DNA of 64,000 nucleotides from Methanomicrobiales archaeon. Lineage in GTDB: Archaea > Halobacteriota > Methanomicrobia > Methanomicrobiales > Methanospirillaceae. Position 1 is the stretch's first letter, and each line of letters starts with the position of its first letter. Below the pieces are notes generated by a model. The model was not told the DNA's origin, ran no database searches, and was given only the letters and a program-made list of their open reading frames with translations. Location: positions 32,001-96,000 of the forward strand of contig JBAXJR010000003.1 in assembly GCA_037137755.1 (NCBI GenBank), given 5' to 3'. Below, piece after piece: positions 43,410 through 50,059 of this stretch. Made by a program: the position numbers and the translations under genes.

Positions 43410-44663
43410 TCAGGCGATTTTTATCAGCCTGATTGAGATTGGGCGCTTTATAATCCCCTTGAATTCGCGTGCTGCGACGTACTCCACGCCGGTCTCGACC
43501 ATGTGGTCAAGGAGTTTCTGGTTCACCTCACCATCCAGGACAACACCCTGGAAATCACCATTCAGTTCACCGAGAGCCGTTTCAACCTCCCCTGTTTTTA
43601 GTTCCCGGAGGAGATCATAGTCTTTGGAAAGGAACCGCGCAATATGGTGGCCCCGCACAGCCCGGATGTGATCAGTAAGCGTCTTTGCTATCCCTGGTTT
43701 TTCAGCTAGACGAGGTTTTACTTTTCGATCGGGGATGCCGGCTGTTGCTCCTGCCGGTTCACCGGGTGATTTTTCCATAGGTGGTTTCTCCGGTTTCTCC
43801 AGGGCCATGTCCGCCGATCGTTCCTCCTCTTCCCCGGTAAAGAACTGGTCACGCACATATTCCACCGGGACCTTGTTCCGGAGTGCCTTGATGACCTCTT
43901 TCCTGGTCATATCCTCGACACTTTTTCCACGGGGTGAGTGTGCAACATAATCAATGTCAGCCACCTGTAACAGTTCCCGAAGTATCAGTTCTCCCCCGCG
44001 GTCCCCGTCAAGGAACGCAGTTGATGTTTTTGTTTCGGTAAGTTCGATAATGGTCCCGGTGACTTTTGTTCCTTCGACAGCGACTGCATTTTTTATGCCG
44101 AATTTTAAGAGGTTAATGACGTCCGCGCGACCTTCCACGACGATTATCGCATCGCTATCCTGTACGTTTGGGCCTGCCGGAACTTTATCCTCCCCGATTA
44201 CACCGATTTTTTCAATACGGATACTCTCCCTGACATCATCCAGCAGTTCGTAGCTGTCGATCGATGCATCATTGAAATAACCGGTGAGCAACTCCTTCGC
44301 TCTTTCCACGATAATTTTTCGTTTTACAACCCTGATATCCTCTATACTTTCAACCGTCACATGGGCTACACATGGCCCGACACGGTCGATTGTCTCGAGA
44401 GATGCGGCAAGGATCGCTGTTTCCGCACGGTCCAGCGAAGAAGATATCAGGATCTCTCCCTTTGTCTCCCCCTTCCTGCTGGTTATCTGGACGTCTATTC
44501 TCCCAACCCGCCCGGTGCGCTGTAAGTCCCGCAGGTCGAGTTCCTCGCCGAGTAACCCTTCAGTCTGGCCAAAAATGGCACCGACTACATCAGGTTTCTC
44601 GACCACCCCCTCTGCCGTGAGGTGGATGTGAATAAGGTACTTGGTAGTATCAGATGAATACAA
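43410..44663 (-). CDS. dnaG: Archaeal DnaG (TOPRIM, exosome-associated)
   Basis: TTG at 44663; DVVGAIFGQTEGLLG, VVEGRADV, DGDRGG. Confidence 0.95.
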   Translation of the reverse strand: MYSSDTTKYLIHIHLTAEGVVEKPDVVGAIFGQTEGLLGEELDLRDLQRTGRVGRIDVQITSRKGETKGEILISSSLDRAETAILAASLETIDRVGPCVAHVTVESIEDIRVVKRKIIVERAKELLTGYFNDASIDSYELLDDVRESIRIEKIGVIGEDKVPAGPNVQDSDAIIVVEGRADVINLLKFGIKNAVAVEGTKVTGTIIELTETKTSTAFLDGDRGGELILRELLQVADIDYVAHSPRGKSVEDMTRKEVIKALRNKVPVEYVRDQFFTGEEEERSADMALEKPEKPPMEKSPGEPAGATAGIPDRKVKPRLAEKPGIAKTLTDHIRAVRGHHIARFLSKDYDLLRELKTGEVETALGELNGDFQGVVLDGEVNQKLLDHMVETGVEYVAAREFKGIIKRPISIRLIKIA

Positions 44664-45036
44664 GGTAATGCCCCCCCATGTGTCATGCAATAATTCATTC
44701 GCGTGATCATAGGTAGTTCCTAGTGGTATGCAGGATCTCTTAAAATGTGTGATATTGTAAAAGGTTTTCCTTTTTTCAAGTACGTGTTGTACCTGTTTTT
44801 TTTATAGCGAATGGATTAACTGTGTAATTATTGTCGACGTATAGTCAAAGACATGGCATTTACTACTGTTTTATAATTTTAGCTTCAATAATCCAATTTT
44901 TCCAAAGATTGTCCATTTTTGCCCATTTAACTATTGCAAATTGTATCACATCAAAGAATCCTGACTATAATTGTGAAAGAAACCCTATAGCGGACTCCAG
45001 GGAAAAAAGATGTGTCTGTTCCGATAGGCAACATAG

Positions 45037-45684: not shown

Positions 45685-46005
45685 TTAACCCGGAACTTTC
45701 GTTTCAATCCTTGAAGTTATCATCTCTGCGGAAAGTCCCCGTACAAGGACTTTTTTCCGGGTGGATGTTAAACCAGATACGATGCTCACATCGCTTTGCG
45801 AAACATCCAGCACCCCGGCTATCAACCCGATAATGGCAATATTTGCTTTACCATCAACTGGCTGTGCTGAAACCTGGCAACCAAGCGCTTTTCTCCAGGG
45901 ATTGTAACCGGATGGAAATGTGCCAGATTTACTCCCGGTTGAGACCTCGATGGTAATAATCGTCCCATTGGTGGAGGTAGTCAGGGCCTCAGATATATTC
46001 ACCAT
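45685..46005 (-). CDS. UPF0235/DUF167 family protein
   Basis: P.DGKAN..I, V.IVSG.TS..K.V. Confidence 0.88.
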   Translation of the reverse strand: MVNISEALTTSTNGTIITIEVSTGSKSGTFPSGYNPWRKALGCQVSAQPVDGKANIAIIGLIAGVLDVSQSDVSIVSGLTSTRKKVLVRGLSAEMITSRIETKVPG

Positions 46006-46150
46006 CCACTAACTATCACCTGGTACCTACATAATCTGCCCGGTTCCTGTAGCAGCTTATAACCTATTCAATAACAAGAGGTTAGAATACGAATCCATGG
46101 TAAAAACATGTGTCCGGTAAATTTGTTTTGTTTTTTCCAGAATATAATTG

Positions 46151-46352
46151 AAATGTCGCCCGACGTTAACAAGTTGGGATCACCAGTGGCATGTCGCCGT
46201 TCTTCACCCGCTTTTAACCCTGTCGGGCGGTGCCTGTCGCAAAACCGGGTTGTCCCGAAGTTCATTTCCAGGCGCTTGCCAGTCGATCACCCGGGGACCT
46301 ATGGAAGTGCTGTATCGGCACCATTAGCCTTTCGTCGTCCCGGTATTTATCC
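46151..46352 (-). ncRNA. Candidate two-hairpin box H/ACA pseudouridylation guide RNA
   Basis: Two hairpins, each with a UGA...UGA K-turn/K-loop and each followed by ACA (46235-46237 and 46154-46156); pocket sequences complementary to conserved 23S rRNA segments as recalled; ends approximate. Confidence 0.72.
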
Positions 46353-46364
46353 AATGCCTTTGTA

Positions 46365-47714
46365 TCATTTCACCGCGTGGTACCCTCTCCCCGGGTACCA
46401 CCGCGAGCCCCCGTTAAAAAATTCCCCGTTGTGGTAGACGATCTTCCCTTCCATTATCACCAGTTCCGGAAATATTGCTTGCATTCCCGTGAACGGTGTC
46501 CATCCGGCCCGGCTGTGTAGTTCTCCGGGGTCTATCCTGGTAATTTCCTGTGAGTAGAGCGCAAAATCTGAACGCTCTCCCGTTTGAAACCCCGCGGGAG
46601 GTATCCCCAGGATTTCGCAGGGTCTTCTGGATACCTTTTCTACCAGTGACGAAACAGGGAGATTTCTCCGCCGTACTTCGGCGAGGAGCAGCGGGACCAT
46701 GGTCTCCACACCTGGTATTCCTGATGGTGCATCTATGAAATCCACTGCCTTTTCATCTATCGTATGCGGTGCGTGGTCTGATGCGATAACGTCAATCTGG
46801 TCCCACATATGCCAGAGCCCTTCCCGGTTTTTGTTATCCCTGATCGGCGGGTTAACTTTTGCACAGGCATCTTTTGGAAGGAAGTCCTCGTTTGCAAGGA
46901 GGAGGTGGTGGGGTGTCACTTCAAACGAGGTCCTGGAAACCCTGGAATGTTCATTAGATTCCCGGGTCATTTTGTCCAATAGTTTCCTTTGCTCCATAAC
47001 AACCGCTATTGCCCGGGCTGTACTCATGTGACAAAAATGGAGCTGACACCCGGAACTATTCAGCTGGCAGACCTTCCTTACAGCATCTGCCTCGCCATCC
47101 GGGGTGCGGTTGGAATCGTGGGCGGCCATTGTTTTCGGTGTGGATGGTCCGACTTCTTCTGCATGAATCGTTGCAAGGCACCCCATATGGTGGATTACCG
47201 TGAGGGCCTCTGAAAGGTCATGAGATGACAATGCTTCCCCGTAACTTGAAGCATCTGCAAATATCTCGCCGAATGCCATTGCCCCCGCGCTCCATAATGA
47301 AGGCAGGTCAGAGCCGGGTGTCACTCCCGCATTGATTGCAAAACCGCAGCATGCATCCGATACAGCTTCTTTAACGCGACGGGTAAAGCGGGAGTGAGTG
47401 GTGAGGGCAGGGACCGTATTTGGCTGGTCGACCACCAGGGTTACACCCCCTGCAATTGCACTCATTGTCCCGCTATGCCAGTCTTCTTTTTCTACCTGGC
47501 TTCCCCCCCGCATATGCACGTGCATGTCCGTCGCAGCTGGCACGAGAAGCATGCCATGTCCTTTTACAATCTCATCAGCCTGCCCGGCTGCACCAATATG
47601 AACTACTCTGCCTCCCTTAAATCCGATATCCGCTCTTCTTCCGTCAGGGAATGTTACGTCAAGAAGGGCAAGGTCTAACCCGGGCATTTGTACCAGACGT
47701 TGGAGTGGATTCAC
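46365..47714 (-). CDS. pyrC: Dihydroorotase
   Basis: DMHVHMR, DQPNT.P, HAEE, H.CHMS, EVTPHHL, KVNPPIR, ASDHAPH, G.PGVE. Confidence 0.9.
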   Translation of the reverse strand: MNPLQRLVQMPGLDLALLDVTFPDGRRADIGFKGGRVVHIGAAGQADEIVKGHGMLLVPAATDMHVHMRGGSQVEKEDWHSGTMSAIAGGVTLVVDQPNTVPALTTHSRFTRRVKEAVSDACCGFAINAGVTPGSDLPSLWSAGAMAFGEIFADASSYGEALSSHDLSEALTVIHHMGCLATIHAEEVGPSTPKTMAAHDSNRTPDGEADAVRKVCQLNSSGCQLHFCHMSTARAIAVVMEQRKLLDKMTRESNEHSRVSRTSFEVTPHHLLLANEDFLPKDACAKVNPPIRDNKNREGLWHMWDQIDVIASDHAPHTIDEKAVDFIDAPSGIPGVETMVPLLLAEVRRRNLPVSSLVEKVSRRPCEILGIPPAGFQTGERSDFALYSQEITRIDPGELHSRAGWTPFTGMQAIFPELVIMEGKIVYHNGEFFNGGSRWYPGRGYHAVK

Positions 47715-47809: not shown

Positions 47810-50059
47810 TTACCTGTGTTCGTCCGGGAGCAGGCATGCTTGTCCTTCTTCATGTGGCTTTGGCTTTTCAAACCCACCCATAACGGACAGGATCGCAGGC
47901 ATGATGATGATGGCCCCTATCAGTGAAAAACCGACCGCAATCAGTGTCGTGATACCGAAATTGCTGATAATCGGAAAACTGGCAAATAAGAGGGCCGAAA
48001 ACCCGAAAAATGTTGCCAGTCCCGAGATTGTAATTGCGGTACCGATCCTCTCAACGCTGTGATGAATGGCACTCATAGGGTCCCCGAGATTATCAAACTC
48101 CTCGGCATACCGCTCCATAACAAGGATTGTGTATTCAGCTGCGACTCCGATTGTCATGGACCCCAGCGTGGCTGTCAGCGGGGTATAATCTATCCCGAGC
48201 AGGTACATCGCGGCCGCATTCCAACCCACGACAAGGATAATCGGTACGAGCGGTGTAATTGCATGTACTCGCCGGTAGACGAGCAACAGGAACACAAATA
48301 CCAGGACGAACCCGAGTGCGGTCATCTGCTCTTTAGAAGATGACAATGAGCCAATCAGGCGGGTGAACAAGTCAAAACTACCGGAAGGGACTGCATTAAT
48401 GCCGGAAGGTGGTGGATTAAATGCGATATCCTGGATCATTTGTTCTTTTAACGAGGATTGCTGGTTTGTCTGGAGTTTTATCGTAACAAACTGGATTACT
48501 CCGTCCGTGGAACCCACAAGGTACGTCTTTTTTATATCTGGTGGGATATTTAACATAACCGCGTCAAGTTCACTCTGCGTTGCCGGCATCTGGCCATTAT
48601 TGTAAGCTAGGATGTAGGTGACGATACTGGTGGCACTGGTAAACTCACTATGCCGGTTCAGTTCATCTTCCTGGAACTGTTTCATCCATTTAATGGTGGA
48701 CAGGGAACTTACCCCGTCCCCGTTCAGGTAAATTGGTGCGGTGCTCGTCGCACCGTACATCCTCGTTACCTTGTCGTTTAAGACCTTTGCCGGCATATCG
48801 GAAGGCACAAAGGCATTTTCATTGGTCTGGATAGGAATATAGGAATCAATCTGGAACCCTATGACTGCGATGACGCATGCCACGAGGAGGATCGGGACAG
48901 GGTTTTTTGCAATTTTCATCGACGTTTTTGTCAGCAGTGCACTGTACGAAAAGCCGCCTTTTGATGATTGTTTCTTAACTTTTGGTTTGTATTTCAGGAG
49001 TATGGCTGCAGTGGGGATGCCGACGAGGGAGGCCAGGTAACAGCAGGCCACCCCGATGATTGAGACCAGGCCAAAACCCTGGATCATCGGCACCGGGGAG
49101 ATAAACATGGCCACAAAACCCATGCAGGTAGCGAGCATTGCATAGAGGACCGCAGGACCTGTCCTTGTCACGGTCATGAATACTGCCTGCTCCATTGAGC
49201 CCTTTCTGATCTCTTCGTCAAAACGGGCATGGAACTGTATGGCGTAATCAATCCCCAGACCTATCATGACCGGGAATGCCCCTATCACTGCCATGTTCAA
49301 CTGTATACCGACCAGTCCCATCAGCCCCATCGCGGATACGAGGCCAATTGCGACCATCAGCACGGGGAGGAACCGGTGACTGACGAATGAGAACAGTATC
49401 CCCATGACTATGATCATCAGGATCAGTGCGGCAAAAATAAGTACGCCGCTTGCGGATCCCATCGAGCTCTTCATCTGCTGTGAGAATGCTGCACTACCTG
49501 TCAAGGATATTTTTACACCAGGCGGCGGATTGGAATTATCAACGAGGCTCTGTAAATTGTTAAGTAGGTTTGTTTTGGCTTTTTCAGAAAGCCCTTCATT
49601 AACATCCACCCTGATGATAGTAATGAGATTTGACTGGGTGTAGACCGAAAGGACTTGTGGCGGTACCCTGGTTTCCGCATCCTGGATCTCGCCAATCGAG
49701 GTGGGAAGTGCCCCGTTATTGGCCTGCTCCAGGAGGTCTGCAATACCGCTAACGCTCTTAATGTTCTGCTGGCTGCGGATCGACCCTTCCAGCCCGTCCA
49801 TAAACCTCAGCATATCAGGGCTTATTGGGGTATCGGTATCGATGAATAAGACTACCGGGTCAGACTGGAAGGTGGTGATGTATTTATTATACTGGCTTCC
49901 TTCCGGTGAGTCCTTCACCATGTATGTTTCCCACCCGTTCTGCATGGAAATCGTCGTCATGCCGTAAAGGCAGACAATAAATAACGCTACAACGATTCCT
50001 GCGACCAGCATCGGGTGATGGGTAATTCCCCGGGCAAGTCGTTCAAATATACGTTTCAC
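47810..50059 (-). CDS. HAE3/MMPL-family RND transporter
   Basis: Two repeats of TM plus extracellular loop; IGLGIDYAIQFHARF and IGVAAEYTIL..ERY. Confidence 0.9.
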   Translation of the reverse strand: MKRIFERLARGITHHPMLVAGIVVALFIVCLYGMTTISMQNGWETYMVKDSPEGSQYNKYITTFQSDPVVLFIDTDTPISPDMLRFMDGLEGSIRSQQNIKSVSGIADLLEQANNGALPTSIGEIQDAETRVPPQVLSVYTQSNLITIIRVDVNEGLSEKAKTNLLNNLQSLVDNSNPPPGVKISLTGSAAFSQQMKSSMGSASGVLIFAALILMIIVMGILFSFVSHRFLPVLMVAIGLVSAMGLMGLVGIQLNMAVIGAFPVMIGLGIDYAIQFHARFDEEIRKGSMEQAVFMTVTRTGPAVLYAMLATCMGFVAMFISPVPMIQGFGLVSIIGVACCYLASLVGIPTAAILLKYKPKVKKQSSKGGFSYSALLTKTSMKIAKNPVPILLVACVIAVIGFQIDSYIPIQTNENAFVPSDMPAKVLNDKVTRMYGATSTAPIYLNGDGVSSLSTIKWMKQFQEDELNRHSEFTSATSIVTYILAYNNGQMPATQSELDAVMLNIPPDIKKTYLVGSTDGVIQFVTIKLQTNQQSSLKEQMIQDIAFNPPPSGINAVPSGSFDLFTRLIGSLSSSKEQMTALGFVLVFVFLLLVYRRVHAITPLVPIILVVGWNAAAMYLLGIDYTPLTATLGSMTIGVAAEYTILVMERYAEEFDNLGDPMSAIHHSVERIGTAITISGLATFFGFSALLFASFPIISNFGITTLIAVGFSLIGAIIIMPAILSVMGGFEKPKPHEEGQACLLPDEHR

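Follow-up and report, generated by a model that had tools for sequence, protein, structure and literature searches.

The closest known relatives of the RNA reported here are archaeal box H/ACA guide RNAs of the family that includes HgcG, Pab40, Pf7, Afu-4 and sR-h45. In Haloferax volcanii, deletion, rescue and in vitro assays showed that stem-loop SL1 of sR-h45 makes Ψ2605 in the 23S rRNA and that SL2 makes Ψ1940 and Ψ1942 (PMC7075261). The hairpins HP1 and HP2 described in PMC2584109 are termed homologues of stems II and III of Pf7 there, and haloarchaeal relatives are likewise given as two-motif RNAs. The target of motif 2 is disputed between a site with A-loop spacing and the U2586-equivalent site, according to PMC2377435, which also gives a 14-15 nt rule for the distance to the ACA box and whose authors reject the A-loop assignment for Afu-4. 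For the hairpins themselves, PMC4652768 places the K-turn or K-loop 8-11 pair positions above the pocket. The eukaryotic H/ACA snoRNAs U19 and snR191 use the same chemistry on the same helix 69 uridines, which are universally conserved (PMC7075261, PMC2584109); however they carry an H box and lack a K-turn.

By sequence comparison, the locus described here is a divergent two-hairpin member of that known family and not a new kind of RNA. Our best explanation, to which we give a probability of about 0.9 as a whole, is that the minus strand at ~46322..46151 of the window (the entire 64,000-nt stretch of DNA that was analysed) encodes, in a Methanomicrobiales archaeon that probably belongs to the Methanoregulaceae, a box H/ACA guide sRNA of ~170 nt with two hairpins and a putative promoter of its own. 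These hairpins correspond to motifs 2 and 3 in the three-hairpin RNAs HgcG/Pab40/Pf7/Afu-4, and to stem-loops 1 and 2 in sR-h45. The RNA most likely guides the pseudouridylation of 23S rRNA. Its features are listed from the 5′ to the 3′ side after the complete element.

46151..46322, minus strand: whole putative sRNA, ~170 nt, delimited by the onset and stop of conservation, the alignments and covariance model R1
46344..46352, minus strand: TATA-like A/T-rich block GGATAAATA with purine-rich bases before it; A/T-rich block aligned in 30/30 loci
46317..46321, minus strand: 5′ leader GUGCC, able to pair with the hinge GGCAC or with GCAC of the 5′ lower stem
46303..46310, minus strand: hairpin 1, lower stem 5′ arm GCACUUCC (covariation)
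46296..46302, minus strand: hairpin 1, pocket 5′ strand AUAGGUC, each base either invariant or shared by at least 90% of 55 sequences
46287..46295, minus strand: hairpin 1, upper stem 5′ arm and G·A dinucleotide (46288-46287); A46287 invariant, G46288 at least 90%
46264..46286, minus strand: hairpin 1, apical stem-loop with 3-nt bulge AAU (46266-46264), K-turn-type motif; U46264 invariant
46254..46263, minus strand: hairpin 1, 3′ G·A dinucleotide (46263-46262) and upper stem 3′ arm (conservation, covariation)
46247..46253, minus strand: hairpin 1, pocket 3′ strand ACAACCC, invariant save A46253 (at least 90%)
46238..46246, minus strand: hairpin 1, lower stem 3′ arm GGUUUUGC (46246-46239) and a G (covariation)
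46235..46237, minus strand: ACA box 1 (hinge box), invariant in 55/55 sequences
46230..46234, minus strand: hinge GGCAC, complementary to the 5′ leader (covariation analysis)
46222..46229, minus strand: hairpin 2, lower stem 5′ arm CGCCCGAC (covariation)
46214..46221, minus strand: hairpin 2, pocket 5′ strand AGGGUUAA, complementary to helix 69 UGACCCU; one G of its GGG core (46218) invariant
46204..46213, minus strand: hairpin 2, upper stem 5′ arm and G·A (46205-46204); 6/7 upper-stem pairs change on both sides
46182..46203, minus strand: hairpin 2, apical stem-loop with 3-nt bulge GGU (covariation)
46171..46181, minus strand: hairpin 2, 3′ G·A (46181-46180) and upper stem 3′ arm (conservation, covariation)
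46165..46170, minus strand: hairpin 2, pocket 3′ strand GUUAAC; GUU invariant, A at least 90%
46157..46164, minus strand: hairpin 2, lower stem 3′ arm GUCGGGCG (covariation)
46154..46156, minus strand: ACA box 2 (3′-terminal), invariant in 55/55 sequences; conservation stops here

Relationship to the HgcG and sR-h45 RNAs

The RNA resembles sR-h45 in having two hairpins in the same order, the 5′ pocket fitting the U2586 equivalent and the 3′ pocket fitting helix 69, with 14 nt from the 3′ guide pairing to the ACA box. The pocket cores are also alike (GUC and AACCC in hairpin 1, GGGUUA and GUUA in hairpin 2), a comparison made through high-GC members found by R1 and through rRNA numbering, and in both systems a G of helix 69 is limited to wobble pairing (PMC7075261). 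However, the hinge is only 5 nt here (GGCAC) in place of the 56-base linker of sR-h45, and the hinge box is ACA rather than AUA. Unlike the haloarchaea-like copies, the 5′ pocket has extra conserved bases (AUAG... and AC...) that add a 12-bp complementarity to the A loop. With HgcG/Pab40/Pf7 and Afu-4 the RNA shares a motif 3 that is aimed at the helix 69 uridine (2016 in P. abyssi, 1970 in A. fulgidus), whereas the first of their three hairpins is missing: there are two motifs instead of the three of RF00064, and the RNA is directly preceded by the putative TATA-like box and by the end of the upstream gene with its stop codon. The numbering is in agreement with these correspondences, since the U2586 site minus the helix 69 uridine equals 665 in a high-GC genome, as does 2605-1940, and the A-loop uridine minus the helix 69 uridine equals 631 in 4/4 genomes of family f8, as in the published A. 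fulgidus positions (2601-1970).

In regards to Rfam 15, no family matched over the whole window at the gathering threshold, and a search of the region at E <= 10 gave only a spurious lncRNA match (E = 3.2). The HgcG model RF00064 did not detect this copy at E <= 10, either in the region or in its own genome, so that the gathering cut-off of 77 bits is not reached; it also missed the 3/3 Methanomicrobiales loci tested, and was over the cut-off in 0/14 control genomes. Membership is argued transitively, through loci that are matched by the covariance model R1, built from 55 homologous sequences, and also by RF00064 (HgcG, Pab40). The R1 loci of three out-group genomes reach 88.4-90.3 bits on RF00064, against the cut-off of 77, with hairpins 1 and 2 aligned to its second and third motifs, and six further R1 loci score 25.5-66.9 bits (E 2.3e-4 to 4.7e-17). 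Among the papers listed by full-text literature searches (15 of 1,071 in one case), none described an H/ACA RNA from Methanomicrobiales; the supplements of PMC2584109, PMC2377435 and PMC4652768 may show methanogen homologues or Afu-4 pairings.

Conservation and covariation of the two hairpins

The feature is a genuine RNA gene, far above chance. It was matched in 55/61 Methanomicrobiales genomes (E <= 8.4e-10) with 69-100% identity, in a comparison where the identity of the flanking proteins goes down to 42-54% and 36-53%. Conservation among the relatives begins at ~46324-46319 and ends at 46153, and R1 matches 46148-46328 with 187.9 bits. Full-length R1 matches were found in 84/151 genomes sampled across the phylum. 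In a separate exact-pattern scan, the archaeal sequences among the matches listed were all from Methanomicrobiales but for one 'Methanobacteriota archaeon', and there were chance matches in Streptomyces and other bacteria.

The initial annotation had proposed a two-hairpin box H/ACA guide RNA from the sequence, and every string that it quoted was located on the minus strand at 46352..46151, including the apical inserts of 21 nt and 22 nt and both ACA triplets. The proposal is supported by a conserved, covarying fold of two hairpins, both with a pocket, a tandem G·A motif of K-turn type and an ACA box. Scored over 54 distinct homologues, the fold pairs 89.1% of cells, in contrast to 32-46% when the partners are slid, and 30/46 pairs change on both sides, with 191 such cells compared with 23-45 in the slid versions; the observed pairing and covariation values were reached by 0/500 shuffles. 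Among the 55 sequences, the two ACA triplets, the pocket cores and the G·A dinucleotide pairs are invariant or conserved in at least 90%, while the stems vary; both the covariation and the ACA conservation (55/55) that the annotation had named as checks were found. The folding energy of the single sequence was no better than that of shuffles (z = -0.26) and its minimum-energy fold is not the H/ACA fold, which makes single-sequence folding uninformative for pocket-rich RNAs such as this one.

Both hairpins have the lower stem of ~8-9 bp, the pocket and the upper stem expected of archaeal box H/ACA RNAs, with an ACA box immediately 3′ of each lower stem. Both also have the conserved GA/GA and bulge U of a K-turn below covarying apical stems, a predicted L7Ae site, and the 9-10 positions from the pocket to the second G·A are inside the 8-11 range of PMC4652768. 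Hairpin 2 is as it had originally been drawn, its lower stem CGCCCGAC/GUCGGGCG being 99.3% paired with 5/8 pairs changing on both sides over the 54 distinct homologues; the apical pair 160-181 is AU in 31 and GC in 18 cases, and helix 167-170/176-178 is 100% paired. In hairpin 1, the lower stem is formed by GCACUUCC and GGUUUUGC (46310-46303 with 46246-46239) and covaries, with two helices paired at 97.5% and 70.4% and 7/8 pairs changing on both sides. Pairs 22-24/104-106 account for the former value (one pair is AU in 30 and GC in 22 cases), and all five pairs of 31-35/99-103 change on both sides (5/5). Within this genus, the stem has three central mismatches, leaving 5/8 pairs formed. The apical pairs 52-78 and 53-77 of hairpin 1 are 96.3% paired and each changes on both sides.

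Predicted targets in 23S rRNA

The organism's own 23S rRNA gene was not found in the 106-contig assembly of the source genome, and pairing was consequently tested on the 23S rRNA of relatives. On the 23S of 10 relatives, a bipartite complementarity around an unpaired U, at 14-16 nt from the ACA box, was found. In the 3′ pocket, GUUA pairs with UAAC and AGGGUUA with UGACCCU of helix 69, which puts the equivalent of E. coli U1915 at 14 nt from the ACA box. This is the site, and exactly the spacing, that the initial annotation had predicted, and the sequence UAAC-UA-UGACCCU is present in four same-genus 23S rRNAs. Helix 69 was the top or tied-top 23S site in 4/4 same-genus 23S rRNAs, but it was not the top site in 5/6 other relatives, and 8/300 shuffled pockets equalled the match. 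Across the 55 homologues, GUUA is 14 nt from the ACA box in 52/52 rows that give the helix 69 pairing. The 3′ pocket would dock on helix 69 for modification of the U1915 equivalent, and U1917 could also be modified if UAUG were left unpaired, as in Haloferax.

The 5′ pocket fits two sites. In the A-loop register, AUAGGU pairs with GCCUAU and ACAACC with GGUUGU (GGUUGU-UC-GCCUAU), the U2555 equivalent being 16 nt from the ACA box. This match of 12 bp (6+6) with one G·U is the strongest complementarity of hairpin 1; the A loop was the top 23S site in 10/10 relatives and its score was reached by 0/300 shuffled pockets. In yeast, snR10 guides an A-loop pseudouridine. In the U2586 register, GGUC pairs with GACC on the 3′ side of U2586 and AACCC with GGGUU on the 5′ side, at 14 nt from the ACA box. 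This site was the consistent runner-up in the 23S rRNA of 10/10 relatives and is kept at 13-14 nt in 29/31 rows of the wider family. Its 9 bp are ~1 sd above the best sites of shuffled pockets (mean 8.0, sd 0.9), and the U2586 assignment thus rests on homology, not on statistics. In the 23S rRNA of one relative, the equivalents of U1915 and U1917 are at positions 1955 and 1957, those of U2554 and U2555 at 2583 and 2584, and that of U2586 at 2615. The A-loop complementarity that was originally pointed out for this pocket stands, but its spacing is 16 nt and not 14-15 nt, and the fit to U2586 at 14 nt had been missed.

It is possible, and we put it forward tentatively, that in methanogens and other non-halophiles of the phylum the pocket has a dual register, in which the same 7+7 bases would dock two 23S sites of the peptidyl-transferase region located 31 nt apart, yielding two pseudouridines. 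In one register, that of Haloferax, AACCC and GGUC would bracket the U2586 equivalent at 14 nt from the ACA box; in the other, which was the first assigned to motif 2 of Afu-4, ACAACC and AUAGGU would bracket the U2555 (or U2554) equivalent of the A loop at 16 nt. If this is true, the A-loop register would have been lost in haloarchaea, a loss that would account for the dispute over position 2601 or 2632 for Afu-4 as well as for the presence of only three pseudouridines in haloarchaeal 23S rRNA.

Alternatively, hairpin 1 might serve the U2586 equivalent only, as in Haloferax, and the A-loop match would then be a by-product or a non-productive docking, a reading that we regard as open to doubt though not far-fetched. 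The U2586 register copies the geometry of sR-h45 SL1, with AACCC and a 9-nt lower strand giving the 14 nt, it is present in those 29/31 family rows with haloarchaea-like ones included, and PMC2377435 argues for the U2586-equivalent site as the true target of motif 2 in Afu-4 and Pf7. However, AUA and AC are unpaired in that register and are nevertheless invariant or at least 90% conserved across the order, as well as kept in 19/31 rows from many families; the 6+6 match to the A loop is, as noted, beyond all the shuffled pockets, and PMC4652768 has Af4.2b with L2601 in its list of modifications 'as shown by Tang et al.'.

Somewhat less probable is the assignment of the initial annotation, in which hairpin 1 would guide an A-loop uridine only. 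This is where the strongest match lies, a statistically unusual one that ranks at the top in 10/10 relatives, and motif 2 of Afu-4 seems to have been given the same site, judging from the 631-nt spacing (PMC2377435, PMC4652768). Nonetheless, the 16 nt to the ACA box exceeds the usual 14-15 nt, the pseudouridine at the U2586 equivalent has been demonstrated as the product of the homologous hairpin in Haloferax (PMC7075261), and the U2586 register is present unchanged in this RNA.

Gene boundaries, neighbourhood and significance

The 5′ end of the RNA is placed at ~46322 by promoter spacing together with the onset of conservation, and the 3′ end would be the ACA followed by a short U tail. The TATA-like block sits 21 nt upstream of the conserved GGUGCC, and its role as a promoter is suggested by archaeal promoter geometry. 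The leader-hinge helix 11-14/118-121 is paired at 97.2% and the alternative pairing of the leader with the lower stem at 88.9%; both are kept, and the data fit either the hinge or the lower-stem arm as the partner of the leader. The leader-hinge helix, which encloses hairpin 1 and its ACA box, might possibly gate the choice of register or of hairpin.

These boundaries differ from those first drawn, where the RNA began near 46352, between the TATA-like box and the likely transcript start, and where ACCGGG/CCCGGU closed hairpin 1 around an extra mini-hairpin within the pocket strand. We find that architecture very improbable, even though ACCGGG and CCCGGU are complementary in the window and part of their pairing is used by the single-sequence minimum-energy fold. 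The ACCGGG arm (46344-46339) is kept only in 10 close same-genus species; in three further genomes of the genus it is altered (AGCGGG in one, AUCCGG in two) with an invariant partner, so that the changes are uncompensated, and the other genera of the 30-locus alignment have unrelated sequence in its place. The arm is, moreover, situated upstream of the point where conservation sets in (~46322) and downstream of the TATA-like block (46352-46344), and a different lower stem of hairpin 1 covaries strongly. What had been taken for a mini-hairpin consists of the 5′ leader together with the arm of the true lower stem.

The order amidohydrolase, RNA, DUF167 was found in 47/48 Methanomicrobiales loci, the sole exception being cut by a contig end. 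A role other than that of a guide is nonetheless highly implausible, whether as a structured leader or cis-regulatory element on the 5′ side of DUF167, which lies downstream, or as a 3′ element belonging to the amidohydrolase gene upstream. Such a role might be suggested by this gene order, by the start of DUF167 ~20-30 nt past the ACA in some relatives, and by one RNA-library contig that extends 85 nt beyond the ACA into a relative's flank. However, outside Methanomicrobiales the RNA persists with DUF167 beside it in 0/12 loci and the amidohydrolase in 4/12, in the three out-group genomes this locus scores above the cut-off as a bona fide H/ACA RNA of RF00064, and the invariant ACA boxes, the G·A motifs and the rRNA-complementary pockets have no role in a leader.

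In favour of the guide RNA reading, genes for Cbf5 (352 bits), Nop10 (77 bits) and L7Ae (60 bits) were found in the genome, each with a score over its cut-off. The Gar1 match is below its own cut-off (24.9 vs 29.3 bits). By analogy with the HgcG and sR-h45-type RNAs, L7Ae would bind the tandem G·A motif of each hairpin, and Cbf5-Nop10-Gar1 would bind each lower stem with its ACA box. Fourteen RNA-labelled runs contain 47-63% of the sampled words. Each of the four metatranscriptome runs examined (4/4, from four studies) has a single short contig that matches the window without a difference over 46153/46164..46309/46312, although such contigs show neither ends nor strand and may derive from DNA carry-over. 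The flanks at 45800-46140 and 46327-46700 were covered by none of the contigs in these four runs, an absence that carries no weight as evidence. The contig ends at 46309/46312 may just reflect read length, given that the contigs are 151-153 nt long.

With this locus, a concrete gene for an H/ACA guide RNA is at hand for the Methanomicrobiales that escapes the present Rfam model, and R1, which recovers the family in 84 of the 151 genomes across the phylum, could therefore improve the annotation of archaeal genomes. The specific pseudouridines that it predicts, three or four in number, lie in helix 69, the A loop and helix 90, all functional centres of the methanogen ribosome, and the RNA would be a natural case for testing whether a single pseudouridylation pocket can act on two distant targets.

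Boundaries and conserved fold

The initial annotation had proposed a two-hairpin H/ACA guide RNA, and all the strings it quoted were found on the minus strand (46352..46151), including the two UGA...UGA motifs, the 21-nt and 22-nt apical inserts and both ACA triplets. When 60 relatives and the organism's own genome were searched at the DNA level, 55 of the 61 same-order genomes had strong matches (E <= 8.4e-10, 69-100% identity); of the other six, five had noise-level matches and one a partial match. In other genera, query coverage always starts at about 46324-46319 and stops at 46153, immediately past the second ACA. In a 30-locus alignment with flanks, conservation of the RNA opens with GGUGCC, and a TATA-like A/T-rich block preceded by purines lies 21 nt upstream of it. 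Its position, together with standard archaeal promoter geometry, would place the transcript start at about G46322/46321. In the same alignment the ACCGGG arm (46344-46339), which had been taken as one side of the 5' lower stem, falls within the promoter-to-start spacer; within the genus only 10 close species retain it, three further genomes show uncompensated changes, and other genera have unrelated sequence there. Both the 5' boundary and the 5' lower stem first proposed are therefore wrong, and choosing ACCGGG as a lower-stem arm is what created the apparent 'mini-hairpin in the pocket'.

The single-sequence fold is thermodynamically ordinary (z = -0.26). The structure was read from an alignment of the 55 homologues, with one partial match (locus L062) excluded. 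Standard pairs occupy 89.1% of 2476 cells, as opposed to 31.9-46.3% when the partners are slid by 1-3 columns, and both sides change at 30 of the 46 pairs (191 such cells versus 23-45 for slid partners). No column shuffle out of 500 reached any of five fold measures, so that the covariation in relatives, initially suggested as a check, is strong. The features read from these alignments are as follows.

Features of the H/ACA RNA gene (window positions)
46352-46344, minus: TATA-like block GGATAAATA
46321-46317, minus: 5' leader GUGCC
46310-46303 with 46246-46239, minus: hairpin 1 (5') lower stem GCACUUCC/GGUUUUGC, 5 of 8 positions pairing in this genus
46302-46296 and 46253-46247, minus: hairpin 1 pocket strands AUAGGUC and ACAACCC
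46288-46287 with 46263-46262, minus: end of hairpin 1 upper stem, U-A and tandem G·A
46266-46264, minus: hairpin 1 3-nt bulge, then apical stem
46237-46235, minus: hairpin 1 ACA box, after a single G
46229-46222 with 46164-46157, minus: hairpin 2 (3') lower stem CGCCCGAC/GUCGGGCG, 99.3% paired
minus: hairpin 2 pocket strands AGGGUUAA and GUUAAC
46205-46204 with 46181-46180, minus: hairpin 2 upper-stem tandem G·A
minus: hairpin 2 bulge GGU and apical stem
46156-46154, minus: hairpin 2 ACA box

Against covarying stems, conservation among the 55 sequences is complete or at least 90% at the two ACA boxes, the G·A dinucleotides, the bulge U and the pocket cores, a pattern that marks archaeal box H/ACA guides. 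The hairpin 1 lower stem carries three consecutive central mismatches in this genus (C·U, U·U, U·U), and about half of all homologues have mismatches at its centre. The leader GUGCC can pair either with the hinge GGCAC (46234-46230) or with GCAC of the lower stem (46310-46307), and both pairings are kept across 54 distinct sequences; a leader-hinge helix would enclose hairpin 1 and its ACA box, an unusual arrangement for H/ACA RNAs.

Candidate target sites in 23S rRNA

The 23S rRNA is absent from the organism's own assembly, and target pairing was therefore evaluated on the 23S of four same-genus and six other same-order relatives and on the 16S of one of them. All three rRNA target sites are identical across the 10 relatives' 23S, and the three motifs were found once each in five further out-group 23S. 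In an unbiased bipartite scan, helix 69 (UAAC-UA-UGACCCU, E. coli U1915 equivalent) ranked first or joint first for hairpin 2 in each of the four same-genus 23S, with 4+7 bp and 14 nt to ACA; under a strict 'UN' rule it was not the top site in five of the six other relatives. The pocket elements conserved over the 55 homologues are GUUA and a GGG(U) core, with GUUA exactly 14 nt from ACA in all 52 rows for which a pairing was returned. These results support the helix 69 target initially predicted for the 3' pocket. The pairing score is at least 8 in 44 of 55 homologues with UAUG left unpaired and in 23 of 55 in the strict 'UN' register; the UAUG-unpaired configuration has been reported experimentally for SL2 of the Haloferax volcanii H/ACA RNA sR-h45, which makes psi1940 and psi1942 (PMC7075261). 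Since 8 of 300 shuffled pockets matched rRNA as well as the real one, the case for helix 69 draws as much on conservation and homology as it does on statistics.

The highest-ranking 23S site for hairpin 1 is, in all 10 relatives, the A loop (GGUUGU-UC-GCCUAU, E. coli U2555 equivalent). It pairs through 6+6 bp, one of them G·U, and lies 16 nt from ACA; none of 300 shuffled pockets reached its score (mean 8.0, sd 0.9, maximum 11.0). The 16 intervening nucleotides are not disqualifying, because activity at spacings up to 17-19 with ACA present is reported by Majumder et al. (PMC7075261). The single 16S scanned holds a near-equal match, which would need the upper stem to be unfolded. The A-loop target originally put forward is thus reasonable but incomplete: GGGUU-UA-GACC (E. 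coli U2586 equivalent), 31 nt further downstream in the 23S, is the runner-up in all 10 relatives and also fits, pairing through 5+4 bp at 14 nt from ACA. In a wider family alignment, scored with one relative's rRNA as a stand-in for every row, the U2586 register occurs at 13-14 nt in 29 of 31 rows, and 19 of the 31 score at least 11 in the A-loop register, none of them with a haloarchaea-type pocket. Across the order, AUA and AC, which matter to the A-loop register only, are invariant or conserved to at least 90%. The 3' pocket strand of hairpin 1, together with its lower-stem arm, can also form as many as 10 contiguous pairs (3 G·U) with rRNA upstream of U2586.

Published guides bear on both sites. 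Haloferax SL1 is described as making psi2605 with '3 and 5' base pairs, two A's of the 3' pocket strand pairing with U2603 and U2604 (PMC7075261), and one high-GC family member has its U2586-type site 665 nt downstream of the helix 69 U, which equals 2605-1940. In four genomes of family f8, carriers of the three-hairpin RNA of Rfam family RF00064, the A-loop U follows the helix 69 U by 631 nt and the U2586-type U follows it by 662 nt. The published A. fulgidus positions differ by the same amounts (2601-1970 and 2632-1970), from which we infer that the original assignment of motif 2 of the Archaeoglobus RNA Afu-4 (2601) was the A-loop site. Muller et al. dropped 2601 for 2632 on spacing rules (PMC2377435), and Toffano-Nioche et al. 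still give Af4.2b with L2601 'as shown by Tang et al.' (PMC4652768). Both the A loop and the U2586 equivalent are plausible targets of hairpin 1 and our data favour neither; a possible dual-register 5' pocket is the RNA's only less ordinary aspect.

Genomic setting and presence in RNA libraries

Genes around the RNA (window positions)
43410-44690: Toprim-domain protein ORF, 426 aa, ordinary and unrelated to the RNA
45685-46005, minus: DUF167 ORF (PF02594), flanking the RNA
46365-47714, minus: amidohydrolase-family ORF (Pfam PF01979), flanking the RNA on the other side
47810-50059: MMPL/RND-type membrane transporter ORF, 749 aa, ordinary and unrelated to the RNA

The order amidohydrolase, RNA, DUF167 on one strand is found in 47 of 48 Methanomicrobiales loci, with the flanking proteins' identity down to 36-54%; the sole exception is truncated at a contig end. 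Outside the order, DUF167 adjoins the RNA in 0 of 12 loci and the amidohydrolase in 4 of 12, and the RNA is therefore an independent gene and not an appendage of its neighbours. DUF167 starts about 20-30 nt after the 3' ACA in several relatives, as against 150 nt in the window, and one RNA-library contig extends 85 nt beyond the ACA, matching a relative's flank, so that the sRNA promoter may also serve DUF167 by read-through.

The genome encodes Cbf5 (352.1 bits, cut-off 238), Nop10 (77.2, cut-off 27.2) and L7Ae (60.4, cut-off 22.1), and a Gar1-like ORF falls under its cut-off (24.9 versus 29.3 bits). Between 47 and 63% of the sampled words of a 241-nt query occur in fourteen RNA-labelled public runs. 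All four runs examined, from four studies, yielded a single contig each, 151-242 nt long and with full identity to the window over 46153/46164..46309/46312; these contigs document presence in RNA libraries only, being silent on ends and strand and possibly of DNA origin.

Relationship to the HgcG family

Rfam 15 returned no family over the whole window at the gathering threshold, nor over 45950-46500 at E <= 10. R1, a covariance model built from the 55 sequences, was matched over its full length in 84 of the 151 genomes of a phylum-wide sample, among them all 19 Methanomicrobiales that it contained. RF00064 (HgcG, Pab40; cut-off 77 bits) scores 90.3, 89.0 and 88.4 bits on three out-group loci also matched by R1 and 25.5-66.9 bits on six further loci. 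At these loci the two R1 hairpins align to RF00064 motifs 2 and 3, and the RF00064 match reaches about 110 nt further 5', an additional first hairpin. RF00064 found nothing at three of three Methanomicrobiales loci (E <= 0.1) and only noise in the organism's own genome (E = 8.5). The overlap of the two models, together with these misses, makes the RNA a divergent two-motif member of the HgcG/Pab40/Pf7/Afu-4 family. Among 14 named control genomes, which include those of Haloferax volcanii and Methanocaldococcus jannaschii, none exceeded the RF00064 cut-off.

Weak R1 matches in high-GC genomes of 3-4 Mb have two hairpins with a longer linker between them, the layout reported for haloarchaeal sR-h45 (Grosjean et al., PMC2584109; Majumder et al., PMC7075261), and these genomes are probably haloarchaea. 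In an exact-pattern scan of named genomes, the archaeal matches listed were all Methanomicrobiales (Methanoregula, Methanolinea, Methanoculleus, Methanocalculus and Methanogenium) except for one with no finer label than 'Methanobacteriota archaeon'; bacterial matches were due to chance. At locus L062 of a same-order genome (G039, contig 1, 2914073-2914474), two R1 matches about 140 nt apart (E = 2.3e-13 and 9.6e-12) in place of a single one suggest an insertion or duplication within the RNA copy.

Full-text literature searches of limited coverage found no published description from Methanomicrobiales, though an earlier one may exist. The family is much broader than the current RF00064 model detects, and its two-hairpin, short-hinge form escapes that model; the double-hairpin H/ACA guide sRNA is real and is an addition to a known family.
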